A DNA stretch of 20,000 bases from positions 425,289-445,288 of the forward strand of contig MU005961.1 of assembly GCA_010093745.1 (NCBI GenBank). Reading direction: 5' to 3'. The position numbers and the translations under genes are program-made. This DNA is from Piedraia hortae CBS 480.64 (taxonomy: Eukaryota). The notes beneath the pieces were generated by a model that had not been told where the DNA came from, did not search any database, and saw only the letters and a program-made list of their open reading frames with translations. Shown here piece after piece: positions 2,432 to 20,000 of this stretch (positions are counted from its first letter, which is position 1; each line of letters starts with the position of its first letter).

Positions 2432-3695
2432 ATGATTGGTGCGATCAAGGAGGATTTAGCCCGACCTCAGCAAGGAGTGGTGACATTTATACCCGAGCGT
2501 CCGGCAAAACGACTTTTTACCGAAGACATTGTAATGAGACAGGTCGATAACTCTGAAACTTCCATTCTCAGTGGTCACAAGCTGCCGAGCAATCTTTAGT
2601 GTCGAGTGTGTTTGAGTGATCGGTCATTGATAGCGAGGTGGCGCGATTTGATCACCTTTGGTACCTTACGTGTTTCGAGCGTGACCAGAGCTTGGGACCA
2701 GGACAGTAGTCCACAAGGCAAGGCCAAAGCGGACAAGGCAGTAATCAAGCTGCCCTTGACCCCGATGTACAAGATCCATGGCTTTGGCCCTCACAAGAAT
2801 TTTCCCTACGAGGATTGGCACTGCAGTCTCCTTGGGTATGTTGAAATTCTTCGAAACCAGACTTTCAACAACTAGGCGGTCACATCAGATCTGGAGGAGT
2901 TGGCAGTGCGGGCGGTTGCCATCAATCGCGATGGCATTCATAGCATGAACACCGCTCAGTGGTTCACGGACTGAAAGAAGACTTTGCTGGGCGGTGACTT
3001 TCGGACGCACATAGAGGCTCTCCTGTTGGTCCTTGTCTCCTTCTACGCCTCGAAAGGGCGCCTTTCGGAGGTCCGACAACTTCTGCATCTGTGGTGTACT
3101 GCGGCGAGGCTAACGAAACTTCACTGGGCCACCCACATCGAAAATCTCGGCTCGTGGTCTAATGTTGTCGAAATGTGCTCTAAGGACATGATAAGGACCT
3201 GGGCTGAGCTCTGTGGGCTGAGCGAGATCCAGGGAAAAACCAAACTTCACATGTCGTGTCATGTGGCTCTGTCTGCTAGGAGGTTCGGGCCGCCATTGAG
3301 TGCCATTATTGAGACACAGGAGTGTGATGATAAAAACTGGCACGAAAATGCTGGTCACACTAATTGTCACACCCTTCCACTGCAAACCGCGCGAAAGTAC
3401 GCCATCACAGCCGGGCATGTTCACATTGCTCCCGGAAGTTAGTGGTGTGTTGACAAACACTTTCCAGGAGCTTTATGGCCTCACTTGGCAGGCTAGGGAA
3501 TACAAGGAGTACAACTGAGTCAGTGGGCCGCTTGACTGTCTTGTCGGGTCGTTTTTGCGGTGCACTGGCCGCGGGGCATCTGTATTTGGCGTCAAGTACT
3601 TCCTCCGCCACACTCAGTGGTTCATCGGGGTGGCTTCGCTGGAAGAATGGACAGAGTCCTCGTTACAGACCGAAGAGGAGATATTTTGTGGCTAA
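2432..3695 (+). pseudogene. Stop-interrupted pseudogene (~400 codons) with a weakly F-box-like N-terminus
   Basis: ATG at 2432 (aaacATG) opens a frame that continues to 3442 with only three internal stops (TAG 2597, TAG 2873, TGA 2972), joining track ORFs 2606-2875 and 2984-3442. It probably shifts into the frame of 3300-3518 and runs to ~3695. The N-terminal AKRLFTEDIVMRQV loosely resembles the L..EDI..R.V part of F-box motifs (weak inference). Confidence 0.45.
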
Positions 3696-4237
3696 AGGCT
3701 ACACAGTCTTGACCTCAGCTGGTCATCACACCTAATGTCTCATAGAAGACGTCTCGGATGTTTTGAATGTTCTAAACTTATGTGGCCGTGGTTGCAAAGT
3801 GACGTGGACAATATCGGCACGGATTGTGGAGGACGTGCCTCAGTAAAAAGCGATGTCGGCCAGTAGTGCCCAAGTATGATGGAACCGTATGCAAAGTGTT
3901 TGCAGGAATAACTAGTGAACAATAGTTCATTATTGCGCACTAGCGTGGGGAATTTGGATGTGTCACCCTGCCTTGTTACACTATCCCCGCAATAGTAAAC
4001 TAGTGGCGCAATATCGTGCGGGGTTGGGCTGTGTACCCTAATCGGCACGTGTTCCAGTCACTGGCTAAAGTACGATCAACCAGTTCAGGGAACCGGTCCG
4101 TTCCCTCCTGCGCACTTGTTACGATATCAAATTCCCTGCCTAACGTTTTCCTCTCCTCCCACACTACAACTCTCGATCCGAAACCCACACGGAGGCAATT
4201 ATCTTCTGCAACCCCACTCTTCTCGACAACGGTCAAA

Positions 4238-4594
4238 ATGTCCCAGCACGCTATAAATAACCACAGGCCTCCCCCCAAGGATGACAACAAGTCCCCCTCC
4301 AACGACGCCACCAAATTTCCGTCCAAGGATGTCACCAACTCTCCTCCCAATGAAGCCCATGTCGGAGACTTTTCCGAAGAGCAGTTTGAGGAACTCGTAC
4401 GCCTGATGGGCATGTCTTCCGCCTGGGATGCAGCGAGATGTTTGACGGGTATAAAGAAGAGCAAGACAGCACAGATGGCGCTTTTCGCTGAGCTTAAGAA
4501 ACAATATAAGAACGAACGTGGCAATGGCAACGAGGGCTCTCCCAAAGATGGAGGGGGGCAAGGTTCCAATGGCAACCGCGGCTCTTCGGGCTAG
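4238..4594 (+). CDS. Small hypothetical protein (118 aa) with 8-aa repeats, a helical middle and a Gly/Asn/Ser-rich tail
   Basis: ATG in good fungal context (gtcaaaATGtcc) after a pyrimidine-rich leader, open to TAG 4592-4594. It contains in-frame 24-bp repeats and shows the 5' C-rich / 3' G-rich pattern of other genes here. Confidence 0.55.
   Translation: MSQHAINNHRPPPKDDNKSPSNDATKFPSKDVTNSPPNEAHVGDFSEEQFEELVRLMGMSSAWDAARCLTGIKKSKTAQMALFAELKKQYKNERGNGNEGSPKDGGGQGSNGNRGSSG
4271..4357 (+). repeat. Degenerate 24-bp tandem repeat, ~3.5 units, coding PPKDDNKS/PSNDATKF/PSKDVTNS/PPNEA
   Basis: Units: ccccccaaggatgacaacaagtcc (4271), ccctccaacgacgccaccaaattt (4295), ccgtccaaggatgtcaccaactct (4319), cctcccaatgaagcc (4343). 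Confidence 0.75.
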
Positions 4595-4705
4595 AATTGC
4601 GGACATGGTTAGCATCCTGTATTGTGCTGAGTATGATATGGGCTGAACGGAAAATGAGAGTGTAGACCTAGATTGCCCTGCATCGTCGTCGGGCTGACTG
4701 ATCTC

Positions 4706-4955
4706 TGTTGGAGTCAAGCATCGCCGTTAGCGCGTATGCGGGGCACTTGCATAGCAAGCCAGCGATACCTCGTACACTACCAGCTGCACCCTAGGTGTTT
4801 TCCCTCACAGAGGTTTACCCTCAGGGTCATGTCATATGTGACATGGCGAATGCGCCCTGCTAGTGTACGATGTGACGTCACCTGCTTAACGGCACAGAAT
4901 AATTATTCTGACGTCCCCTCGTAGAGATATAGTTACTCAAACTGTCATATCGACA
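4706..4955. repeat. Dispersed LTR-like repeat, copy A (may extend to 5075)
   Basis: Direct-repeat homology to 7790-8091; core 4784-4866 vs 7856-7936 differs at about 9 of ~83 positions. Homology starts at TGTTGG in both copies and ends near ...ACA (4955/8091). It is preceded by ATCTC (4701-4705) and followed by TGGTAG at 4957. The LTR interpretation is less certain than the repeat itself. Confidence 0.8.
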
Positions 4956-6019
4956 CTGGTAGTGACTCCTCGCCGCCTGCATCTTTTCTGTCCCTGTCGT
5001 TGATCTCCGTCTATCGCTACGTCCTCCTAATTCGGGCCGCTGCGCACTCCCATCCACGACATTACTATCGCTACAATCTCTTTCTGTAGATCTCATGTGC
5101 TCGTAGAGATTTCGGCTCTTTGCGAGAGTGGGCCCTGTAGGTCTCGGCATCGTGTGGATGGCTAGATCACTGCCTTTAATGTTGATCGAATGAACAAAAT
5201 CAGATCGGGCAGAAGACACCAGATAGGAAAGAGGGTGGGCATGGGGGTTGACCAGTATGTCTCATTACACTGTACAAACAATCGAGTCTGTTTGCTGGCT
5301 TGAGTGGAATACTTCTAGCAAAGAAAGCGGGCTCCGCAGAACTTTGCTCTCGAACGCGCTGGATTTTTTACAGAGCTCTCGCGTAAACCACCCACGCAAA
5401 GCGTCAGTTAAGTAGAGTTAAAGACAAGGCTGTGGAGGAAGAGGACGAAAGAAATGTAGCATCTTCCATGCTCGGTAGGAACAAGACCATTATAGCTTTA
5501 CGACCTCCCGAGGATGATGATGTAGAATCCCAATGTTCATGAACGCAAGTCTATTGTCCTCAGTGGGGCTTTTGTATCGCGTTCTCGCATTGCTAGATAC
5601 ACTAAGCTTCAAACGAGCTGCCGGGATCTTTGAGCGTAGGCTGGCGCAATCTTTCGTCCTTACAAACATTCCGTGATTGTGACACCAACTGCGCTGAGAG
5701 GTTATCTGCTCAAAGGGTCTGCTCGACAAGAGTTGGCGATGGCAAGGGTGCAGTGATCTTTTCATAGCGCGCAGTCCAATAAAAACCTCCTCAAAAGGAT
5801 TGTTATCATCGAGATGTCTTTCGAAAATCCAACTAAAATCTTGTGTCAGGTGAACTTCCTAGCGCGCTTGCACCATCCACAACAAAGCTTCACACAACGT
5901 CCGTGCACTGCCCCACAAAACCTACCAAAAAATCCTGCTTCCTCTTCTTCCTCTCCACAACACAACACCCGCAATCATCAATCCACAACACAGCATCTCC
6001 AAACATCAATCCACCCACA

Positions 6020-6547
6020 ATGCGAACACACGTCACCCCCCGGGGCCCAGTCCCAGTGATCAACCAAGACCCCGTCCACTGCCACTGCGACGGTCACGAT
6101 TTCTTCGTCCCACGACGAATTCTCAATCATATGGGCCTCTGTCGCGCGCAACTCTCCTCAATGGATACGCTAGGTGCAGTCCCCAACGCGCCGGTGGCTC
6201 TACCCATTCACAAAGTATCTTACCACGAAATCTACTTCGTTATGCAATGGTGCAGTGCTCACGTTGGTGATGAGATTCGGAGCAGGGAGATGAGAGAGGT
6301 TTTGCGTCAGCCGTACAGCAATATTGCGGATGCGTGTCCTGCGTTTACGGAGAGTGATCATATTTATTTTGCAAGATTGTCGCCAAGCGGACTGGCGAGG
6401 GTGATTAGTGCCGCATATGAGTTGGAGGTGGAGGGATTGGTATTGCAGGGTACAAAGGTGCTGGCTGAGAGGGTTAGAGGAATATCGCCGGGGGATATTA
6501 AGAGGCTTATTGTTGATGGAGGGGGGGTCCGTGGGCCAAGGGGGTGA
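6020..6547 (+). CDS. Divergent Skp1-family (POZ + Skp1 C-terminal) protein, 175 aa, intronless
   Basis: First ATG (cacaATG) in ORF 5843-6547. Colinear Skp1 hallmarks: CDGHDFFVPRRI (cf. SDG..F.V...V), LPIHKVSYHEIYFVMQWCSAH (cf. IPIPNV....L.KVIEWCEHH), ESDHIYF (cf. EWD..F) and LARVISAAYELEVEGLVLQGTKVLAERVRGISPGDIKRLI (cf. [38 protein letters not shown]). Confidence 0.85.
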   Translation: MRTHVTPRGPVPVINQDPVHCHCDGHDFFVPRRILNHMGLCRAQLSSMDTLGAVPNAPVALPIHKVSYHEIYFVMQWCSAHVGDEIRSREMREVLRQPYSNIADACPAFTESDHIYFARLSPSGLARVISAAYELEVEGLVLQGTKVLAERVRGISPGDIKRLIVDGGGVRGPRG

Positions 6548-7789
6548 GCGGGAGAGGGTTTATCAGCTAAGGGTCGGGATGAGTAGGGGGCGTTCTTCGG
6601 GAGGAGGAAAGGGATTGGATGGGAGTGGGTTACTTGGCGTCTTTACAGACTCTGTTGCAGGAGCTTGGTCATGCGACGCGTATTGTTAGTGTCTGGTATC
6701 ATGATGATGCCCACTTATTCTATATCGTTTTCCACGGTGAGCAGTATATCTTGGTATCCAGTAGTAATACGGCTTTAGCATCGCTGTAAGCCACTATCCA
6801 GAGTACATACATTTGGCAAGTAATTGTCCTCGTATCGGCATCGTAGCTTTGCGGACCTGGGACAAACGATACCTTCGCACAAGCCAGTACTTCTGGAAAG
6901 TCCCAGGTTGCGCTCCGAAGTGAGTTCGTACATGTGCACGTTATGGGAAAGACTTTGCAACAAGGCCGTAAGAACTCGGGCAGGCATCTTGAGGAAGAGG
7001 CAAGCTCTGCTATACACCACCACTAGTAAATCCCTTATGAAGATCGGTCAGGACAGCATCCCCACAATGCTGGGCCAGTAATAAAGATATTACAGCGCCA
7101 TTATGAGTCCAATCATCATTCTAAAAAGATCACCGAAGGGCCACCATGCGAAAGCCAATTTCTTCAAACACCCAACAGACACAACATCGAAGTCGTCCAC
7201 CAGAGCCTGTGGACTTAAAATCCCGCAGATCGTCCGACCGACCCAAGCCTGCGAATTGAATGCTCACAACATAACTGCGAGTGGAAACGACCTCGGCACA
7301 TCGTGCATCTTTCCCTTCCCCTCAAAGGGCTAAGAAACCTTGCCGCCATGAAGGCATTCGCCGCAAGAAATTCTGTGTCAAAGTGCCACAGGAGAGAGGC
7401 TCCTGCAGCTTTCCCCCCACGAACCTCGCATCTAACAGAAGCATCAGCTTGCTAAAGGCGCCTGTGGCGAGAAATTCGTTCAAAGCGGTCAAGTGCCACG
7501 TAGTCTGTTCCCCACGGCTTCAGCTTAACGCAGTGTCTCTCTCAAACTGCGGAGATGTTCACACCAGCTTTGGGCCCCTACCTTCGACAGCCACTTTTAG
7601 CTCTCAATCAACTACTGGCAACGCGCAAACACTTACCCTCCGGGATCTTCAACAACGTGGTTTGACCACGGCAGTGGAGAGTCGCAACGCCTTATCTACC
7701 CCAAATTTCTTCCTCGCATGGCGCTCGCAACCAGATCCCACCTCCAGTTGGAAGATCTCAGCTTAAGGTCCAGATGTGCACGCAATTTC

Positions 7790-8091
7790 TGTTGGCATGG
7801 AGCCTCGTTGCTATAAGTATACGATGCCACTACGCGACACCTCTTACACCAGCAACTGCACCCTAGGTTTTGTCCTCATAGAGGTTTCCCTCAGGGTCAT
7901 GTCGCATGCGACATGGCGAATGCGCCCTGCTACTGTTTGAGGTGAGTCATGGAGTAAGACTGCATGTATGACCACTTGCTTACGGTCATACGATTGATGG
8001 CTCTTCATACGAGGCTACGCACAGGCCTTCCAGCCCATAATATATTCTCTGATGTCCCCCTCGCAGATACACTTGTACTCACTCATACACA
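7790..8091. repeat. Dispersed LTR-like repeat, copy B
   Basis: Homologous to 4706-4955 in the same orientation, with extra internal sequence (~7950-8030) absent from copy A. Begins TGTTGG and ends ...TACACA. Confidence 0.8.
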
Positions 8092-9619
8092 AATCTCTAC
8101 TCCCCATCCATCGTTCTCATTTGCACATACCATCTTTTTTTCCAGTTTCCTACAAGGCGAGTAACCTCCAGCTTGACATTCGCAAATGCCATGTTCTCGT
8201 GAAGTAAAGGTGAAAATGCCCTTAATCAATACTGACGGCCGAAGTTTTGCTGCAAGCAACAGTTCGCATCCGACGCGTTGTTAATATTATTTCATTTCCT
8301 CACGCCTTTCATTCGAGAAGTTGCCCAGTGGCCCACTTCAAGGCTCCTAGAACGTTGAACCCAATTAATAAATTGGTTAGATGGACGGCCCCACCCCAAA
8401 ACCGAATTGATCGAACACGTCGAGCTATGAACATGTCCTCCAATTGAAAGTTTGTCCGGCAGCCCCTTACACCTCCCGAAGCGTTAGCATTGGTCACCCA
8501 TTCTTTCCCGGCGCGACGCAACTCCAGAATAGCTTGCTGACGGTTCGACACCTTAACATAGTCTCGGCGGCCCCTTGAACACCTCAGGAAGTCAGAGCTT
8601 GCTATGGCATGTGTGAAGACGACTTTCCCAAGTTGTATCATAGCTTGTCAATCAGCCCAGTCATCCTGATCTCTGGCGTCGAGGTTAGGAAAGATATCCT
8701 GGGAATTCATACTCCCCTCCCCGCGCTTTGTGTTGACAAGTTAGCAGATTGGTTCGGTGGACGGCCCATACAAGAGAACATGTTGATGGTCAACCGAACG
8801 CGCCCTCATTCATTCCCAACCTCCAATGCTCACGAACCAAAGCGCTTCGTCGGAGGAGACGCCACGTCAACACAACATCGAAACCAAACAAGACGAGCAA
8901 TTTTGCAAGAATGACACTATGTCATCGCCCCATTAGCTCGTGCAGCTGACGAGCTCCCGCCATATGCTGCGTGACCACGCTCCCCGAATGCCTAAGTGTA
9001 CGGAACAACAGATTATCTCCCTAGTATGGAGAGAATCTAGGTTCGGTGAAGGGAGAGGAGGCGGGTTGGATTGAGGGATGCTATGCAGTAGAGAACCGCG
9101 AAGGAGTTTGATAGGGATAATGGAATAATGGGGTTGTTTCTGGGAGGAATGAGTTAAATTGTATATAATTTTTTGCTCATGGACAGCCGAACATATTGAA
9201 CCCACTCTTATTTGGCAGGAGAATCTCTGTACTGGTGAACTTTTGTGAATCGAAGCCACCAAAGAGTGTACTCTCCATTCCTCGCTCAAATATCCAGACA
9301 CAGACGTGTTGAAATCATTACTTGCTGGTAGACCGAGCGGATTTTTCCGAGGCTAAGATGGAAATTTGTGGGGCAGGTTGACTTGGCAGGTTACTTGTGG
9401 GGACTTGGACCCCAAATCACGCGTACGAATGCCCCACTGAGCCAGATACATCCAAAACAGACGTTGCCTCAGCTTCACAATGCACATCCTTTGAACATCG
9501 AAGGATCACAAACCTATCCATCACCATGTCTCCAGTACCTCACTCCGCAGTAGCGAAACCCCGCATGCAAAACGAGCATCGCGCAACAGCGGAGCTAACC
9601 CCTCCCCCAAATCCTATCA

Positions 9620-10756
9620 TCAACCCAAACATCCCCTCACCCCCTCCAACAATCCCCTCTGCGCAACAACCTGCGACGCATCCCACACCATCACGCCCCC
9701 AAAACTCGCAAACCTCTTACAGTACCCAATCACGTCCTCAACCCCCTTAAGGGGTAAGAACCCACTCCCCGCCGCCGTGGGACCGCCAGGCACACCCACC
9801 AAAACCCTCACATTCTTATTAACCGAGCCATTTCTCGCCCACTCATCCCAAATCCCAAAATTAAAGTAACCCTGCTCCTCCGCGCCCTGGATATAAGAAT
9901 TTGCCCCGCAGTAGTTATTATAAAACTGCACGAAAACCGCGTCGAAGCTGACACCCCCGGAGAGCATAGCATCGTCCGCGAGGTCGGGAAAGGGACATTG
10001 TGGTGCTGCGGTTAGGTAGTAAGGTCCGTTGGGGGAGGAGTCCATGATATTGCGGAGTTTGGAGGCGAAGGGGAGGGTGTTTCGCATTGAGGACTCGAAG
10101 TCGAGGTCAATGCCGTTGATTTTGGCATTGCCGAAGGGGCGATGGGGAGAAATGCTTCGCGGAAGGATGGTTGGTGCTTTGTTCGGGTAGGGGGATTGTT
10201 CAGGAGGGCCAAACATTAACCAGAGTTTTCGGGCCCATTCTTCTGCTTCCGAGGGGGTGGAGAAGCCACCTTCCGTGTAGGTTGCTCCGCCGATGGAGAG
10301 GATGATGGTTTTGTTGTATTGTTCTTGGCAGGTTGTGATGTCTCGGCCGATGTCGGGGCAGTTGAGGAGTTGAGTGCCAGGGAAGAAGGTACAGTTGTCT
10401 TGCTGGTTGGCGAAGTTGAGTTGTGGGCCGTTGGTTATGGAGTAGAGGAATGCGAGAGGGATGATGTCGATATTGGTGTCTTGGTAGGGGGGGAGGTTGG
10501 GGTTAGTTGGGGTGGATTGGGAAGAAGAGGAAAATGCGTACTGGCACAGTAGGTTGCGAGGGGTTGTTGGGATAATTCTCCGCTGGAGGCTCCGTATGAG
10601 TTTTGTCCTGGTTGTTTTGTTATTATGTAGGTTTATGAGGATGGAAACGAACCAACCCCAATAGACGGCGACATTGTTGGACGAGGATGCAAAGACGTTA
10701 GCCTTGCACAGGCTGCAAAGTGCGACAAAAACTGTTAGTGCGACGTGGTAGGCCAT
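9620..10756 (-). CDS. Secreted GH18 class III (plant-type, Cts1-like catalytic domain) chitinase, ~341 aa, 3 exons: 10756-10657, 10607-10542, 10479-9620
   Basis: Hydrophobic signal peptide. Splicing GT..AG introns 10656-10608 (49 nt) and 10541-10480 (62 nt, ACTAAC branch point, AAG acceptor) restores VAVYWGQNS…LATYCANTNIDIIPLAFL. Further motifs: KTIILSIGGA, RPFG, catalytic NGIDLDFE, YYLTAAPQCPFPD, FVQFYNNYC, FGGVMVWDAS. No Ser/Thr-rich, CBM or GPI tail. Confidence 0.93.
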   Translation of the reverse strand: MAYHVALTVFVALCSLCKANVFASSSNNVAVYWGWFVSILINLHNNKTTRTKLIRSLQRRIIPTTPRNLLCQYAFSSSSQSTPTNPNLPPYQDTNIDIIPLAFLYSITNGPQLNFANQQDNCTFFPGTQLLNCPDIGRDITTCQEQYNKTIILSIGGATYTEGGFSTPSEAEEWARKLWLMFGPPEQSPYPNKAPTILPRSISPHRPFGNAKINGIDLDFESSMRNTLPFASKLRNIMDSSPNGPYYLTAAPQCPFPDLADDAMLSGGVSFDAVFVQFYNNYCGANSYIQGAEEQGYFNFGIWDEWARNGSVNKNVRVLVGVPGGPTAAGSGFLPLKGVEDVIGYCKRFASFGGVMVWDASQVVAQRGLLEGVRGCLG

Positions 10757-11105
10757 TGGAAGGTGGACAAACTTGGAGACGAGGAAAGATTTATATCAAG
10801 TTCCTGGCAATGACTCGTTGACGTTGGTGTGGTGGAGAACTGCGCGGTCCCGTCCCCAGTCGTGGGCCGGATCATCGGACAGTCGTCGAGTCGAGACAGG
10901 ATTGCGAGTAAGGGGCCAACTCTGGGCCGGCGTTGAGATCCGGTAACGTTACTGTGACCGCAAACGGCAGCATGCATCTCCAACCTGTCTCTTACCCGCG
11001 TCGCACAAGACGCTGCGCAACAGCAGCCGACCGTTTCGCTGCGACAATCATCAGAGGGCCTCACAGGATGCGAACACATTTGTCAGAAAAGGGAAAATCA
11101 TTACA

Positions 11106-12907
11106 TTAGAATTCATTGGGCGTCCATGGCTTGCTAAGGAAGCCAAGAAACTTCTTTCGACCGTTCACCGAGGCGGCCTCGGTGCCGATTTTGCCAGCCT
11201 TGGGCGTCTTTGCTTTGGACTTGCCATCTGCAGCGGGAGATTTCGAGTCTTGGTTTGTGCTTTCGTGGAGGATAGCCAGACGTTTTTGGGCGTTCTCGTA
11301 GCCCTGGTTGGCCGCACGCATATACCATTGATTGGCATTCAGTGGATCCCGTTGACAGCCGATGCCCATCTCGGTGAAATAACCTACAGCAAACTCGGCC
11401 TTTGCGTGACCTGTCACTTGTGTCAGCTTGGGTATGCATATTGAACGTCGGACAAACCAATATCTGCCGCCTGTTTGGCCCACATGTAGGCTTCTGTCTC
11501 GTCTTTGGCCAGCACGGGCTCGGCGCCAACCATGTACCAGGCGCACAAGGCCATCATGGCATCTGGATTGGCACGAGTTGCTGCATAGTTGTAGTGATGG
11601 ACGCTGAGTGCAACATCACGAGGACAGCCGTGCCACCCGTTCTCATAAACCTCTCCCAGACACAGGTTTGCTTGAACATGGCCCAGTTCGGCTGCTTGCG
11701 TTATAAGCTTGATGCCGTATTCTTCATCTTGAAAGACATCGTCGCCGAACCCAGTCAGGTGAAGCAGGCCAAGCTCATAAGGAGCGATGTTGTGCTGCAG
11801 ATCGGCGCTTTCTGTGGCGCGCTTAAGCCACGTAATTCCTTCACGAGTAGAGGTATTGCGATTCAGCCCCAAGGTGCCCCGGATACAGGCCAGGCCAAGA
11901 CGGGTGGCGGCGCCTGGGTGATTTTTTGACGCAGCTGACCGATAGAATTGCACAGCCTTGGCGTATGAAGTCGACGACACCCAGCCAAACTCATAGCATA
12001 GGCCGGCGCGATAACCAGATTCAGCATGGCCGTGTTTCGACGCCGCAACAAAAAGGGTCAGCGCCTTGTCGCGGTCGGGCTTGTTCTTATTGAAGAGACC
12101 AGAATAGAATCCATCGCCTAGGTAGTACTGGGCAAAGGGATAGCCACGATCTGCGAGGCGCTGCAAGATGCTCTTCGCTTCATTGAGGAGCTGCGCAGGG
12201 TCTAGGCCATCGTCGGGCTCAGCCTTTTTGGCGGTTCTGACCATGAACACGGCAAACTCATACGCCACAGCTGGGTCAGTAGACTTGGTCACATTGGCAC
12301 GGTACATTTCCAGCGTTTTCTTGGTATCAAGCAGGCTGGCCGCGCTGCCGACCGCGTTCTGGAGCGCCGCGTGGCTCTTGTTTGGCATTGGAGCGATCTG
12401 TTGGTGGTAAGGAACGTCAGTGAGCAGGTCAATGTAGCTCATGGGGCGATTGTTGGGCGAACGGCGCGACATGGAGGGTTGTCTAGAAACAACAGGAGGC
12501 GTGTTTTGCCCCGAATGTGTGCCACTATGTGAATCCCTACGCGACTCTCCGAATAGAGACGAAATGCTTGGTTTAGCCAATCTTGGCTGCTCTTGACTCC
12601 GCCGTTCACCAGACCAGCTGGAACGAGCCAGATGCTTGAGAGAGTGTCGCTTGTTCGTCAGCGGACCGAAAGCGAAATATGAAAGGCCGGGCCGCATTTC
12701 GTCCTGGATGGCAGCTGGAGAGGCGCTCTTTGGCCGCTCATCGTCGGGCGGCGTCTGCTTCGGTGATGCCGCATCTCCGTCGCGCGAGGCAGGCGGGGGA
12801 GTTCCGATCTTTCCGCTGCCGATCGAAACATCCCGCGAGCGCCCGCCGTGTCTGGCCTTTGATACTTCACTGGCATAGTCTTCGACGGGCAGTCCCACTG
12901 GTTCCAT
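11106..12907 (-). CDS. Sel1-repeat chitin synthase activator (Chs4/Skt5-like), ~584 aa; exons 12907-11458 and 11410-11106
   Basis: Ser/Arg/Pro-rich N-terminus, then TLEMYRANVTKSTDPAVAYEFA and tandem Sel1-like repeats (LADRGYPFAQYYLGD, ASKHGHAESGYRAGLCYEFG, AASKNHPGAATRLG, APYELGLLH, AMMALCAWYMVGAE). A 47-nt intron (GTTTGT…GCTGAC…CAG, 11457-11411) joins DIG|HAKAEFAVGYFTEMGIG. Start assigned to cacc-ATG-G at 12907; an upstream exon cannot be excluded. Confidence 0.88.
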
Positions 12908-13521
12908 GGTGTAAATTTTTGGTCGACCCTTCCTCGCACTTGGGATGGCGCTGTCAACTCCCAACGGACGTTATTATGGCTGCAATTGTGCAACGCAAAC
13001 GGATGTGGATAATGCCTATTGATACGTTGATGAGGTGCGGTGAGGCGGATGATGTCTGGCTGCGATCAACTCCCAGCGGGAGTATCCGAGGAAGGAGCGT
13101 GGGGGGCTGTGTCTATGCCCGGTGGCTGATGGCCGCTGTCCATTTGGACGTTTTTCTTTGCCTCGCCAAGATATGACCGTTTGCGATTGCGGTCACGTGG
13201 TTTCTAAATGGGGACGGCCGAATCAACCACGCACACGGGACTTGTGGACAAGCACTGGCTCTAGCCAGTCTAGTCCAGTAGTCTGAGGTACATTGTGCAT
13301 ACCTCGGCAACTATCTGCTTACGACCTGAGTTCCCACATCGCTTGGCCTCAGCTGTTGAATTGGTACACTAAAGAAGGGGGGTACCAAAGAACTAAAGGG
13401 AGAAACAGTTATCTATTCGCCCTTGCTGATTGTGAATCAAGTCTATAAGCCCAGCAGATAGTCCAAGTATCAGCCATGTCTCGTATCCGTCAAACCAACC
13501 CAACCTCATGACTTTCCTCCA

Positions 13522-13710
13522 TCACCACCCTGATCTAACCCAGTATTCGACAGTCTCACTTTCAGTAGTAGTTTCACCACCACCACCACCACCTCCTCCT
13601 CCTCCTCCTCCCCCTTTCCCCGACGATCTTTGTACCACGAAAAATATTAACCCGGCGGCGATGACTGCAATCGTTCCAAGCACTCCCAGCAAGATGGCCA
13701 AGCTCGACAT
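13522..13710 (-). CDS. Putative 62-aa single-pass membrane microprotein with poly-Gly tract
   Basis: ATG in good context (gaacaATGtcg), then a ~23-residue hydrophobic stretch (LAILLGVLGTIAVIAAGLIFFVV) followed by QRSSGK and G13. Short, with no recognised family. Confidence 0.4.
   Translation of the reverse strand: MSSLAILLGVLGTIAVIAAGLIFFVVQRSSGKGGGGGGGGGGGGGETTTESETVEYWVRSGW
13575..13614. repeat. Compound trinucleotide microsatellite (CCA)5(CCT)6
   Basis: Sequence caccaccaccaccaccacctcctcctcctcctcctccccc; encodes the poly-Gly of the minus-strand small ORF. Confidence 0.9.
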
Positions 13711-15056
13711 TGTTCCTATCTTTTGGAAGCCTGATTGATGTTAAGGTCGTCTCTGTTGCGTTTTCGAGGCCTTGCCTCAGCCAACGGAATGTGTGAACGG
13801 TTGAGATGATTGATGTTGAACCAGGTTAAATATTTGCAGTGCTGGGCTGGTGGACAGGTAAGGGAGACATCGAGTCGATTGGGTGTACTTGAGTGTCTTG
13901 AAAGAAGGCGTCTTTGCCTGTGTTTGTGCCGGCATGTTCACTGGTGCATTACAAACAAGACGAGGTGAATATGAACCAGAGCGCACCTGGGCGCACAACG
14001 TATACAGTTTGCCCTTTGCTAGGCAAGCGTATTCTCAGCTAGCCATTATATCAGAACGCCTGCTTAAGCGCTAGTGCCACCAATCTATGTTTCGTCGTCG
14101 AGTTGAATTACGTTCAAGCACAGCTACAGACCAACACAATCGCCTGGGTCATCGAGCCAGAAAGACAAAGTAGGCTTGTAGCTTGTAGGGACTACGGAAT
14201 ACAATGGGGCAAACGTTGCCAGCAGTTACTGCCTGCGGATCTATCAAAGGACCTTTCCAACCATCGCTTGATTCGCTGTAATGTTACTTCATCACCAGAA
14301 ACAGGCTCCTTTTCATGATACGCCGGCGCATCAAAGCACCCGCACTCGATGACTTACATTGACCAGATTTGCATAAAACTCTGCCGCAACGCTAGTTTCC
14401 AAACCGTACCATTTTCGATATGAGATGAAAGAGACCAGTAATGGGCCCTGCAAAGAGCTCTCTAACAGCAATGTCTCTGCGTCTCTCGGTCAAGAGACGC
14501 CGCTCCTCCACCGGATTGGTTGCTAGTTGTGTATATCAGCTTAGATATTGGCATGGAAACGGATCAAGCTCCCAATCAGCGTCTGCTCGCGAGGTGGACT
14601 CTAGAAGGCGTGGTCTGCACGCCCACGTTCACCTTCCAGGCGACGACAGCTTCATAACCCCCGCCCCCACCACCTCAGCCCGCCCGTTGAGCTCCACAGT
14701 TGTTGTGCAGTGGCTCGCAGGAAGCCCACAGTGGCGCCATAGCTGCTGCTGGCTCGGGGCGCTCCACCGCCACGTTGTTCCTGCATGGTCCTGCATTGAC
14801 GGCCATCACGTGATCAGCCACGCCAGCATCACTCGGGCAACGCAGCCATCAAGCAAGTTATTGACGCTGTCGATCGTCGCTTTCACTCGCTCAGCGACGT
14901 GTTTGCGCGCGTGGACGGCATCTCGCATAACGCGGCCCGCGTTCCCAACCAGCCGGAGTTTGTGGGAAACCGCAACAGCCAGACCCCAGCCGAAACAGCA
15001 GGAAAACGAGAGAGAAACACGTGTGCGACGCGCAAGGGAGGGCGCACGAGGCTGCC

Positions 15057-18000
15057 ATGCCTTCCACTCCCAGAAGACATCAGCCAGAGTCTCCGCGACG
15101 GCCCAGACGACCCTCCCATGGCGGCACGCGCACCGAGAAGCCGCGCAGACGCGCCAGTACAGATCGATCAACTCCGCGGGCGCAACCTCGTAGTTCCAGT
15201 GTTGGCGGTCCGCGATCGCCACCCCGTTCCAGGCAACGCGCTCACCATGGGGACCATCGTGAGCCAGACGAGTACAGAGAAGAGTACAGACGTAGGAGGA
15301 GGAGCTCTGGAGGCAACCGCCCGCCTCCACGTCCAACTTATGATTCGCCGCGAATGACTGATCACCGCCGTTATCTTACTCAGTCGGAAATTCCATCGCC
15401 CGTAATATCATCGCCGGTCCGTGTGCGGGAGTCTGATGCGATGCTTGAACACGGCACTCCTGTGCGCAGTAAACCCGGCGGGTTGAACCACAAAAAGTCC
15501 CTCGTCCGTCCCGAACGGCGCCGCGAGGATCCAGACGGTGATCCAAACTATCACTACAGTCAGCATGCCAAGCGAATGAACATTTTGCCCTCCACAACTG
15601 GCCGAGATCCGCAGTTGGAAGATGATATGCGAACGCTTTTGTCGGATGTGGACGATGACAGGCTTGGCTCATCCCCAGTCTCCACCGGGAAGATGACAGG
15701 TGGGGGCGTAGTCGTCAACAGACGGGGCGGAACCAGACGCACCCACAACACTCTGAGCCGGAAACCGACCAAGGAAGAACGAGCCAAGATGAAGAAGAAG
15801 ATTCAGAACAAGGAAGCAGAGGGCAAATTGAGCCTGTGGAACACGTACTGTCGCTTGGTCACTCTCTGGTGCCCAAACATCTTCTTAAAATGCGCTGGAA
15901 TGAGGCAGAAGGAACAGCAGAGAGCGTGGAGAGAGAAGATGGGCCTCATCAGCATCATTCTGCTCATCATGTTGTTTGTCGGATTTCTCACCTTTGGCTT
16001 CACCGAGACCGTCTGCCCGGCGGGAGGGCCGGCGAGGCTGAGAGTGAACGAGGTATCTTCGTCGTATATGATTGTCCATGGTCGGGCTTATGATCTGTCA
16101 AAGTCTCGTCATCCGCTTGCTCGTGGCATTCGGGCGAATGCCAACGTTCTCTATGATCTACAGGAGCCGCAAGGTGGAAAAGACGGCAGTTTTCTGTTCC
16201 AGAACGTCAATGGCGCCTGCAAAGGCCTCATCAGACCCGCTCCTAAATCAGATGTTCCGCATAATTCGAATGGGGATATGGCTTGGTACTTCCCCTGCAC
16301 CACCTTCAACCAGGACGGCTCCAGCGAGCCTAACAAGACCATCCCATACTATCTGGGTTACGCTTGCCATACATCCAAGAGGGGTCGTGATGCCTTTTAC
16401 GATCTTCGAAATAGTGGCGATGTGTTCTTCACCTGGGACGATGTGAGGAATACCAGCCGAAATTTGGTGGTATATAGCGGCGATGTGTTGGATCTGGACC
16501 TGTTGGCCTGGTTTAACACCTCCCAGGTTTCCTATCCGTCCCAGTTTGACCGTATGCGTACCAACTTGGCTATTCGAGGCAAAGACATTACCCTGGCGTT
16601 TTCCTCTGGCAGCAATCGCCAGATGGTGCGCTGCTTGCAGGAAATTGTCAAGGTTGGCTCGGTTGACACGCTCACGGTCGGGTGCATCGCGTCCAAGGTG
16701 GTGCTTTATGTCAGTTTGATCTTCATTCTGGGCATTGTGGCCATCAAGTTCCTACTGGCTCTCCTTTTCCAGTGGTTTCTGTGCCGCAAGTTTGCAGCTG
16801 ACAAGACGTCCATGTCATCAAACAAGAAGGAGCGGATGCAGCAGATCGAAGACTGGACAAACGACATTTACCGTCCAGCGCCCGATGTTACCGATCCAGT
16901 ATCTGAGGCAGGGATGTCAGGTGGAAACCGGAGCAAGCGGAATAGCTTTCTGCCCACTACCTCTCGGTTTACCAGCCCATACGCCATGGATCGTCCCGTG
17001 GTGAAGGATCGCCCTTTGCCCACAACTATGGCGAGCCAGCAGTCCACAGCTCGTTTGCTTCCGGGGTCTACTAACTTGGAGCCGCCTTCGAACCGTAGTG
17101 AGGTTACGCTCTCTCAAGAATCAGGCAGCAGGGCCAGTCTCACGGATCGGACGTATACTGCCACTGCTACAGGCACAGGCATGTTCCCGAACAGTGAGAC
17201 TACTTTTGCGGACACGAATATTACAGGGCCTCAGGGATTTATCCACGAGTCTGTTGTACCTCAGCCCCCAGTGGAATGGCAGCCGTTTGGTTATCCACTG
17301 GCCCATACCATTTGTCTCATTACCGCGTACTCAGAAGGGCCCGAGGGAATCAGGACGACACTGGACTCAATCGCAATGACTGACTACCCCAACAGTCACA
17401 AACTAATCCTGGTCATCTGCGACGGTCTCATCAAGGGTAAAGGCGAGTCTATGAGTACGCCCGAGGTTTGTTTGTCCATGATGACGGATCACGTTGTTCC
17501 ACCGGACGAGGTCCAACCCTTTTCTTACGTGGCTGTGGCTTCGGGATCCAAGAGACACAACATGGCCAAAGTCTACTCTGGCTTCTACGACTACGGCAGA
17601 CGGTCCATCATACCACCAAACAAGCAGCAGCGAGTCCCAATGGTCCTCATCGTCAAATGCGGCACGCCCGCAGAGTCCAAAGCAGCGAAGCCCGGCAACC
17701 GTGGCAAACGTGACAGCCAAATCATCCTCATGTCGTTCCTCCAAAAAGTCATGTTCGACGAGCGCATGACCCAACTTGAGTACGAAATGTTCAACGGCAT
17801 CTGGAAAGTAACCGGCATCTCGCCCGACTTTTACGAAATCGTCCTCATGGTCGACGCAGACACAAAGGTCTTCCCCGACTCCCTCACAAACATGATCTCC
17901 GCCATGGTCAAAGACCCTGAAGTGATGGGACTCTGCGGCGAGACCAAAATTGCCAACAAGACCCAATCGTGGGTCTCCATGATCCAAGTATTTGAATACT

Positions 18001-18923
18001 TCATCAGCCACCACCAAAGCAAATCCTTTGAAAGCGTCTTTGGCGGTGTAACCTGCCTGCCCGGCTGTTTCTGCATGTATCGCATCAAAACCCCCAAAGG
18101 CGGACAAAACTACTGGGTTCCCGTTCTCGCCAACCCGGATATCGTAGAACACTACTCCGAAAACGTCGTCAACACGCTCCACACCAAAAACCTGTTGCTC
18201 CTAGGTGAAGACCGCTACCTCAGCACCCTAATGCTCAAAACCTTCCCAAAACGCAAACAAATTTTCGTCCCCCAGGCAGTCTGCAAGACTACAGTTCCCG
18301 ACTCTTTCAAAGTCCTCTTATCACAACGCAGACGATGGATCAACTCCACCGTTCACAATCTCATGGAACTCGTCCTCGTAAGGGACCTGTGTGGAACATT
18401 CTGCTTCTCGATGCAATTCGTCGTGTTCATCGAACTGGTCGGGACACTTGTCCTCCCCGCCGCGATCGCGTTTACGATCTTTCTGATCATCAAGGCTATC
18501 ATCGCGGCCGCGACGCATTCCGTCGTCCCTGTCATCCCGCTCATCCTCCTAGCGCTTATCCTGGGCCTCCCGGCAGTCCTGATTGTTGTGACTGCGCACC
18601 GACCGGTCTATGTCCTCTGGATGCTGGTATATCTCCTGTCCTTACCGATCTGGAATTTTGTTTTACCAGTGTATGCGTACTGGCATTTTGACGATTTTTC
18701 GTGGGGGGATACGAGACAGACTGCCGGGGAGGTCCGCGGGGCGGATAAGGGGGGACACGGAGGCGATGGGGAGTTTGATTCGAGTCAGATTACGATGAAG
18801 AGGTGGGCGGATTTTGAGAGGGAGAGTAGGTTTAATGCCAGGGGAAGGGAGTTTGATGCTAAGGGTGGGAATATGTTTGATGCTAAGGAGGGGGTCGGGT
18901 ATGGGCAGGAGGAGGAGTTTTAG
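15057..18923 (+). CDS. CHS3: Class IV chitin synthase (division 2; yeast Chs3 / Neurospora chs-4 type), ~1288 aa, apparently intronless
   Basis: First ATG (gccATG) at 15057 in a 3.9-kb ORF. Motifs: AWREKMGL followed by a TM helix, cytochrome-b5-like [88 protein letters not shown]. No myosin motor domain, so class IV rather than V/VII. Confidence 0.96.
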
Positions 18924-20000
18924 GGGGAGTTAATGGCATAAAAGTAGACGGGTTTGATTTTTTGGTGACGGGAGTTGTATGCGATGCCTTTCGCCATTCT
19001 AATGATTTTTGTGTCAGTAGCGACGCCTACAGTGAGTTCGGTCACTGGAGGAGATTCTCTCCGGCTAGAGAACATTTCTTCACATATTTCACCATTTCAA
19101 TAAGACTGACCCGTGCGAACCGTGAAGCTCCACGGTGAATAATACTTCGAGAAGAATGAACAAGAATTCAATGCAATAGGCGCCAGAAAGTCATGCCCTG
19201 GTCATCATTCTCTCCTAAGTTCGATTGAGGCAAATTGTGGAAGTAGGTACTTCCACGAAGCCGAGTTCTACTCCCTTCCACCAGGCACTCAGAGTCCAGC
19301 ATATGAGAAATCATCCCTGCGAAGATCCTCCTGCGATACTCATTGGTGTATACACAGAACACAGATCATCATTAGCTTAGCCGTCGTATATCCCTGAACT
19401 TCCCCAGTTTTCCTCCCATGCAACGCATCACCCTGCCACCTGACGTCGCCGTGACAACCCATCCCCCAAAGAAAAACAAATCGTAATCGACTGACTCGTG
19501 CCTGGAGCAACATGTCTCCCCTCGAGTCTAGAAGGTAAAAAAAAACCCTCTGCGGATCTCCTCTTGTCATTTCAGCGCTCCGTAGTCCACGCTGCGTTCA
19601 TTATCCATGCCGCTTGGGGTGAAAAATGTTTCCCACACCCCACCGTGGAACAGTACCGCATATCATCACGCTCTCGCACAAATTTTTTCCGTGGGAAATT
19701 CTCCACACGGATCTCGACACTGCAGTCTTACAAGAAAGCTGATTTCCTCGCGAAGGATGGAACAGTGGCTCATGTCATCTTGCTGGTCAAGGAGTACGGC
19801 GACGATGGAAAGATCTTTGGAATTGCGACGAACAGTCGAGTGCACAGGTGTTATAGGGCTGGAGTCGGTAGGCGGGACGGCCCATGCCGGCTCGGTGTAC
19901 AGAAGTATTATAATTGTGAGCAGATGTGTACCTGCATACAAATCTCTACGGAAAACTAGTTGACGCGTGAAGTCGAGAGCCGAGCGACGGTTACTAATAA

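Follow-up and report, generated by a model that had tools for sequence, protein, structure and literature searches.

An inverted-repeat core conserved in two dispersed repeat copies of Piedraia hortae is probably the conserved internal block of an LTR

Two places in the genome of Piedraia hortae CBS 480.64 carry the same short stretch of DNA, here called the core, which is dense in potential hairpins. The question raised by this locus is what kind of genetic element carries the core, and whether the fold or the underlying sequence has been kept. The window analysed is a stretch of 20,000 nucleotides (contig MU005961.1, positions 425,289 to 445,288 of the forward strand), and all positions given below are positions within it. 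A sequence-only reading had described the core as a structured block of about 109 nt present in two copies of a dispersed repeat, and had proposed a functional RNA or single-stranded DNA structure carried by a mobile element, such as an LTR signal, a ribozyme-like motif or a tiny MITE.

Both copies, A and B, were found where that reading had put them. The BLASTN comparison aligned 4762-4880 with 7834-7949 at 84.9% identity over 119 columns (E 1e-27), with 15 substitutions and 3 indels between the two cores, and no other significant BLASTN match was found between 3500-6500 and 6501-9600. The copies lie 3 kb apart; they are 85% alike in the core and unalignable elsewhere. All the elements that had been quoted are present in the sequence, including the arms of a closing inverted repeat, three mini-hairpins (ACC-CTA-GGT, CCTC-ACA/ATA-GAGG and CCC-TCA-GGG) and a long hairpin that reads CATGTCA-TATG-TGACATG in A and CATGTCG-CATG-CGACATG in B. 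The coordinates of these and the other features are collected in Table 1.

Table 1. Location of the core copies, their carrier units and associated sequence features in the window
Feature	Position	Strand	Description
Solo LTR A	4706..5075	.	370 bp, TGTTGG start, GCTACA end; limits from contig depth step and loose ends
Left target-site duplication ATCTC	4701..4705	.	adjoins the boundary set independently by the contigs
Right target-site duplication ATCTC	5076..5080	.	adjoins the end of LTR A
Core A	4762..4880	.	4766-4874 of the sequence-only reading plus a few bases on each side; LTR A positions 57-175
Closing inverted repeat, 5' arm in A	4766..4783	.	17 nt, 88% complementary, 73 nt between arms
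Closing inverted repeat, 3' arm in A	4857..4874	.	partner of 4766-4783
Two CCCTNAGG-type palindromes around CCTC-ACA-GAGG	4788..4827	.	pair together in the minimum-energy fold, enclosing a T/U-rich internal loop
Near-palindrome CATGTCA-TATG-TGACATG, 18 nt	4828..4845	.	perfect palindrome in B at 7898-7915 (9+9 nt, 100%)
TGACGTCA palindrome	4873..4880	.	3' edge of core A; TGAGTCA at 7943-7949 in B
AT-rich 16-nt palindrome CAGAATAATTATTCTG	4895..4910	.	putative TATA-like element, function inferred
LTR-like unit B, diverged	7790..8127	.	TGTTGG start; GCACA end placed by weak homology to the end of A
Core B	7834..7949	.	from BLASTN alignment and inverted-repeat search

The extent of the repeat around core A was determined with contigs from two public runs, placed on 4500-5200 at a likeness of at least 80% (436 pieces from run X1, which is DNA, and 160 pieces from run X2, which is RNA by guess only). 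The summed contig depth is 12.6 up to 4691, lies between 834 and 19369 through 4692-5075, and drops to 23.9 and then to 12.2; such a sum is no copy number, and the claim of many copies is based on contig counts only, with 55 distinct X1 contigs over place 4759 and 43 over place 4817. An estimate of about a thousand LTR copies, obtained by setting the summed depth of about 19,000 against 12.6, was dropped for the same reason. Loose contig ends with unlike flanks gather at 4705/4706 (9 + 27 in X1 and 12 in X2) and at 5075 (22 in X1 and 14 in X2). Their continuations disagree with one another (agreement 0.37-0.44), which points to different genomic flanks. Together with the depth step at 4706 and 5075, these loose ends indicate that the repeat unit is 4706-5075.

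Solo LTRs of Ty1/copia and Ty3/gypsy elements are characterised by TG...CA termini, a 5-bp duplication, a length of a few hundred bp and many dispersed copies. The unit around core A has TG...CA termini, many copies bounded by those termini, and identical 5-bp flanks (ATCTC/ATCTC), a match expected by chance at fixed positions about once in 1024. These features identify copy A as a solo LTR of 370 bp; its boundaries, termini, duplication and multi-copy nature were all observed, and the suggestion of an LTR as the mobile carrier proved correct. LTR A would have been left behind by recombination between two LTRs of an inserted element, and the ATCTC duplication would have been made at integration and retained since then. 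A TGG-type primer-binding site or a purine tract was not found in the flanks of A or B, and the lack of both beside LTR A fits a solo copy. The Pfam search revealed no retroelement domains in the 12 ORFs of the window that were scanned; three of them had matches, all chitin-related.

Compared with known elements, LTR A agrees with the solo LTRs of fungal Ty1/copia and Ty3/gypsy elements in its length class, TG...CA termini, 5-bp duplication, dispersed copies and absence of an internal coding region here. However, no full-length element with paired LTRs and gag-pol was seen, nor an internal region, primer-binding site or polypurine tract that would tell the two superfamilies apart, and the duplication is missing from unit B. 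Short LTR-like units of high copy number are also found among TRIMs and other non-autonomous LTR elements, but a TRIM consists of two LTRs with a short internal segment between them, whereas copy A stands alone with its own duplication.

Unit B has no 5-bp target duplication at its ends (ATTTC vs TACCA). Alternative duplications were considered and found unconvincing, namely a 4-bp TTTC with the end moved to 8294, and 5-bp TACGA matches for which the start would have to be moved inwards to 7825. The possibility that A and B are the two LTRs of one element was ruled out by the matched duplication of A itself and by the alignability of the two units in the core only. The best explanation is that copy B is an older or related LTR remnant, which has only the core block in common with A. 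The contigs ending loosely at 4762 (7 records in X1 with an agreement of 0.84, and 3 in X2 with an agreement of 0.92) continue into a consensus that nearly matches the sequence upstream of core B. Therefore, B belongs to a second, multi-copy subfamily with the same core.

It seems that several LTR subfamilies share the left part of the unit and diverge in the right part. The core block is 85-92% alike across LTR subfamilies that are otherwise unalignable. The earlier statement that the core is much better conserved than its flanks is correct for the comparison of A with B, but the contigs cover 4716-4763 at least as heavily as the core. In the left 80-180 nt of the LTR (4706-4790), the summed contig depth, again no copy number, is about 9,000-19,000, compared with 630-1,450 in the right half. 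It is quite probable that the core represents the most conserved internal block of the LTR of an abundant LTR-retrotransposon lineage in this fungus. It would have been kept across the diverged LTR subfamilies as a cis-acting part of the LTR.

The capacity of the core to fold exceeds that of shuffled sequences. The arms of the closing repeat, separated by 73 nt in each copy, are complementary at 15 of 17 positions in A and 13 of 17 in B, and this was matched by only 1 of 300 mononucleotide shuffles for A and 4 of 300 for B. When the structure proposed by the sequence-only reading is laid over both copies, 90% of the 70 pair cells are standard, compared with 24-44% after a shift of the 3' partners by 1-3 columns. 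Against shuffles, the fold z-scores of A and B are -4.09 and -3.37 for the + strand, and -4.53 and -3.61 for the - strand. Neither strand is preferred, as both fold about alike as RNA, and the + strand also folds well with DNA parameters. The minimum-energy folds replace the three tri-loops by another arrangement, where the first palindrome ACCCTAGG pairs with the third, CCTCAGGGT, enclosing the CCTC/GAGG hairpin and facing T/U-runs.

The pattern of substitutions shows which parts of the core have been kept. The 36 columns of the closing stem hold 9 of the 15 substitutions between A and B, and the 73 columns of the interior hold the other 6 (Fisher p 0.035), which makes the closing stem the part of the core with the lowest conservation. 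Of its 18 pairs, 7 are disrupted in one of the copies, with no case of compensation. The two copies had earlier been reconciled into one version with a perfect 18-bp stem. In the X1 contigs, C makes up 90% of the depth at 4772 (40 contigs) and 97% at 4871 (43 contigs), and since these majority letters are unlike the reconciled version, the perfect stem is not the state of the family. Thus, the closing inverted repeat is real and goes beyond shuffles, but a perfect 18-bp stem occurs in neither copy and not in most genomic copies. The outer inverted repeat may be an old feature now decaying neutrally.

The sole compensated pair, 4834-4839 (A-T in A vs G-C in B), lies on two CpGs of the perfect palindrome of B. 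All three differences between A and B in the long hairpin are C:G-to-T:A transitions, and two hits among four CpG cytosines have a chance of 2 in 6 of being pairing partners. Symmetric CpG deamination, which had been mentioned as a caveat, is the better reading of this swap. The TpA/ApT index is 1.08 in LTR A, 0.81 in LTR B and 0.66 in the window, and the (CpA+TpG)/(ApC+GpT) index is 1.00, 1.32 and 1.23, respectively; the values of LTR A, unlike those of B and the window, are RIP-like by the usual RIP thresholds. Transitions account for 46 of the 72 variable places in X1. Among these contigs, A>G at 4834 reaches 20% of the depth and T>C at 4835 reaches 21%, and the 40 of 105 variant rows considered hold no T>C at the partner place 4839, which is a weak hint against linkage. 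A two-sequence shuffle control for covariation gave 264 of 500 and was without power. Scans of metagenomes with patterns derived from the core matched 0 stretches.

In the interior of the core, none of the 6 single differences that separate A from B affects a palindrome arm (p 0.023). Likewise, 6 of 7 interior variable places among the rows listed spare the arms (p 0.09), a count that is not independent of the A-vs-B one. Since the interior differences avoid the arms, the short palindromes themselves appear to be conserved. Kept arms with free spacers suit dimeric protein-binding sites as well as stems. The evidence for a selected RNA or single-stranded DNA fold is weak, and the functional structure proposed by the sequence-only reading was not supported by the tests applied: the closing stem has no compensation, the one swap can be explained by CpG, no strand is preferred and no Rfam family was found.

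A structure selected in the retrotransposon transcript is an unlikely, but not negligible, explanation of the core. If the + strand is sense, the core lies in the 3' UTR of the transcript, where 4788-4827 could act like an ENE, clamping the poly(A) tail; if the - strand is sense, it belongs to the R-U5 leader, with a possible role in packaging, dimerisation or priming. ENEs are hairpins that clamp the poly(A) tail in RNAs of transposable elements (Tycowski, Shu and Steitz 2016, as related in PMC12501189 and PMC7583470), and these two papers describe them as strongly associated with LTR retrotransposons of plants and fungi. In both copies, the first and third mini-hairpins join into a predicted stem of 8-10 bp with facing U-runs, a 4-bp CCUC/GAGG upper stem and flanking G-C pairs. 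In this predicted form, the core would share with ENEs the stem-loop, the U-runs facing each other in an internal loop closed by G-C pairs, and the LTR retroelement as a carrier. The predicted U-loop has 5' UUUC against 3' UUU in A and 5' UUUUGU against 3' UUUC in B; with the majority letters of the contigs (T at 4797 in 56% of the X1 depth and at 4817 in 88%), the runs grow to about 6 U against 4 U. In B and in the majority form, the predicted G-C pairs beside the loop are G4795-C4819 below and C4803-G4813 above, and in the predicted fold of A the additional pairs G4797-C4818 and U4798-A4817 close the lower side, so a U-A pair abuts the loop. The avoidance of the arms by the interior differences, the single change of an A-U to a G-C pair, and an X2 contig (RNA by guess) that extends, mismatch-free, from the ORF upstream through the first 52 nt of the LTR, up to 4757, are also consistent with a stem in the transcript. 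However, the U-runs are shorter than in the ENE of KSHV PAN, which has five U-A-U triples according to PMC7583470: the 3' run comprises 3 U in A as well as in B, and 4 when the majority letters are used. With only 4 bp and a 3-nt loop, the upper stem is very short, and the likeness derives from a predicted fold. The middle part is as stable or better on the - strand: -16.2 kcal/mol vs -15.4 on the + strand for 4788-4827 in A (z -2.5 and -2.6, respectively), and -14.2 vs -13.4 kcal/mol in a second pair of folds. The lack of compensation in the closing stem, the weak hint from 4834 and the absence of an Rfam family on the core at E up to 10 also argue against a selected RNA stem. In the Evade/Copia93 element, as described in PMC12501189, the ENE is located between the ORF and the 3' LTR, whereas the core here is inside the LTR. 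The resemblance of the middle part to an ENE is weak. A further reading would make the core a cis-acting RNA module conserved in an LTR-retrotransposon lineage of the Dothideomycetes, with a minimal poly(A) clamp of ENE type in its middle that diverged LTR families have retained and that the solo LTR here lends to the 3' UTR of a host gene. This reading is doubtful, more so than a transcript structure in general.

The two other proposals for the core fared worse. It might be a tiny MITE (a non-autonomous DNA transposon) that entered an ancestral LTR and then spread with it, which would account for an 18-bp terminal inverted repeat around 73 nt and for the end of the similarity between A and B near the arms. 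The MITEs of filamentous ascomycetes are likewise about 100 nt long, with terminal inverted repeats and a strong foldback potential. However, no direct repeat lies beside the 18-bp arms in either copy (GCGA... vs ...ACGT/AGTC), so the flanking target-site duplication is missing. Among the 12 of 150 loose-end rows considered, the boundaries with unlike flanks are at 4705/4706 and 5075 and none is at 4766 or 4874, and no independent core copies with insertion boundaries of their own appear. The loose ends at 4762 and 4882 agree with one another (0.84-0.97), which signifies divergence of subfamilies and not insertion sites, and the contig cover to the left of the core equals the cover over it. 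The contigs define the 370-bp LTR as the unit that moves, and a MITE origin of the core is highly improbable. Hammerhead ribozymes are carried in the LTRs of plant retrozymes, and a self-cleaving ribozyme or another known RNA gene in the repeat would agree with the compact multi-hairpin fold and the strongly negative z-scores. The Rfam search that had been suggested as a check yielded nothing on the core: no match reached the gathering score anywhere in the window, none appeared in 4690-5090 even at E up to 10, and 7775-8145 gave only 2 chance matches to lncRNA families, both outside the core. The strings nearest to the hammerhead CUGANGA box are CTGACGT and CTGATGT; they are located outside the core and do not fit. 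A self-cleaving ribozyme or another known RNA gene is scarcely credible.

For the function of the core within the LTR, the most likely reading, with a chance slightly short of even, is that it acts at the level of double-stranded DNA, its short palindromes forming a cluster of protein-binding sites next to bZIP-type sites and a TATA-like palindrome. The hairpin potential of the core would then be a by-product of its palindromes. The palindrome TGACGTCA in A and its counterpart TGAGTCA in B are candidate sites that agree with the consensus of bZIP/CRE- and AP-1-type sites. The AT-rich palindrome CAGAATAATTATTCTG is bracketed by another inverted repeat, 4866-4880 / 4909-4923 (TACGATGTGACGTCA / TGACGTCCCCTCGTA, 13 of 15 complementary). 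A block related to the AT-rich one, ATAATATATTCTCTGATGTCCCCCTCGCAGATA at 8037-8069, follows core B at a distance of about 90 nt, compared with about 25 nt in A. Neither the TATA-like element, which is itself palindromic, nor the contigs, which carry no strand, favour one orientation of the LTR over the other. With the + strand as sense, the core would fall in U3, upstream of the TATA-like element and bordered by putative bZIP-type sites; with the - strand as sense, it would fall in the R-U5 leader. A transcription start near 4935-4980 had been considered from the ratio of X2 to X1 depth (0.3-0.7 at 4764-4931 and 3.8-5.4 at 4980-5075) and was dropped: the ratio was not used because contig depth cannot rank parts of a stretch and because both orientations fit. 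After the DNA-level block and the less likely transcript structure, the remainder falls to a neutral relic or an unknown.

LTR A begins 112 nt past the stop codon of a 118-codon ORF (4238-4594), for which no Pfam family was found above the cut-off. The two ORFs adjoining LTR A gave sub-threshold Pfam matches only (SMAP, 17.2 bits against a cut-off of 29.5). The X2 contig that bridges the junction of this ORF and the LTR by 52 nt has a depth of 583.8 and is mismatch-free over 4500-4757. If X2 is RNA, LTR A may form part of the 3' region or 3' UTR of ORF 4238-4594. X2 has no cover at 5100-5200, where X1 has 12.2, and this was not counted as a transcript end in the LTR.

Several other features of the window were noted. 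Two tandem 28-nt units, 82% alike and C/A-rich, occupy 5954-6009, just upstream of the ATG at 6020, from which a 175-codon ORF without a Pfam match starts. Three chitin-related genes are located side by side at 9620-18923, comprising a GH18-like ORF (9620-10795, - strand), a Sel1-repeat ORF (11423-12970, - strand) and a chitin synthase. The Sel1-repeat ORF may be an Skt5/Chs4-type activator, a guess from its Sel1 repeats. The chitin synthase gene (14931-18923, + strand) is of class-IV type, with Chitin_synth_2 (Pfam E 3.7e-286) and a CHS4 domain. Inside the GH18-like ORF there is a two-armed island of GC skew, which is -0.3 to -0.62 over 9400-9950 and +0.29 to +0.64 over 9950-10800.

The carrier of the core is ordinary, as solo LTRs of this family are scattered through the genome of the fungus. 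What looked like a striking signal of a structured RNA is the conserved middle of a solo LTR, and similar hits in this genome should be checked against the LTR family first. The gene immediately upstream of the core at this locus looks expressed. Were the resemblance to an ENE borne out, it would add fungal examples located inside an LTR to a class of RNA stability elements in which, according to PMC7583470, about 10 out of more than 200 predictions have a confirmed function. Judging from the sequence, conservation across subfamilies marks the core as what is probably a real cis-element of the retrotransposon, either a promoter-proximal cluster of sites or a transcript structure.
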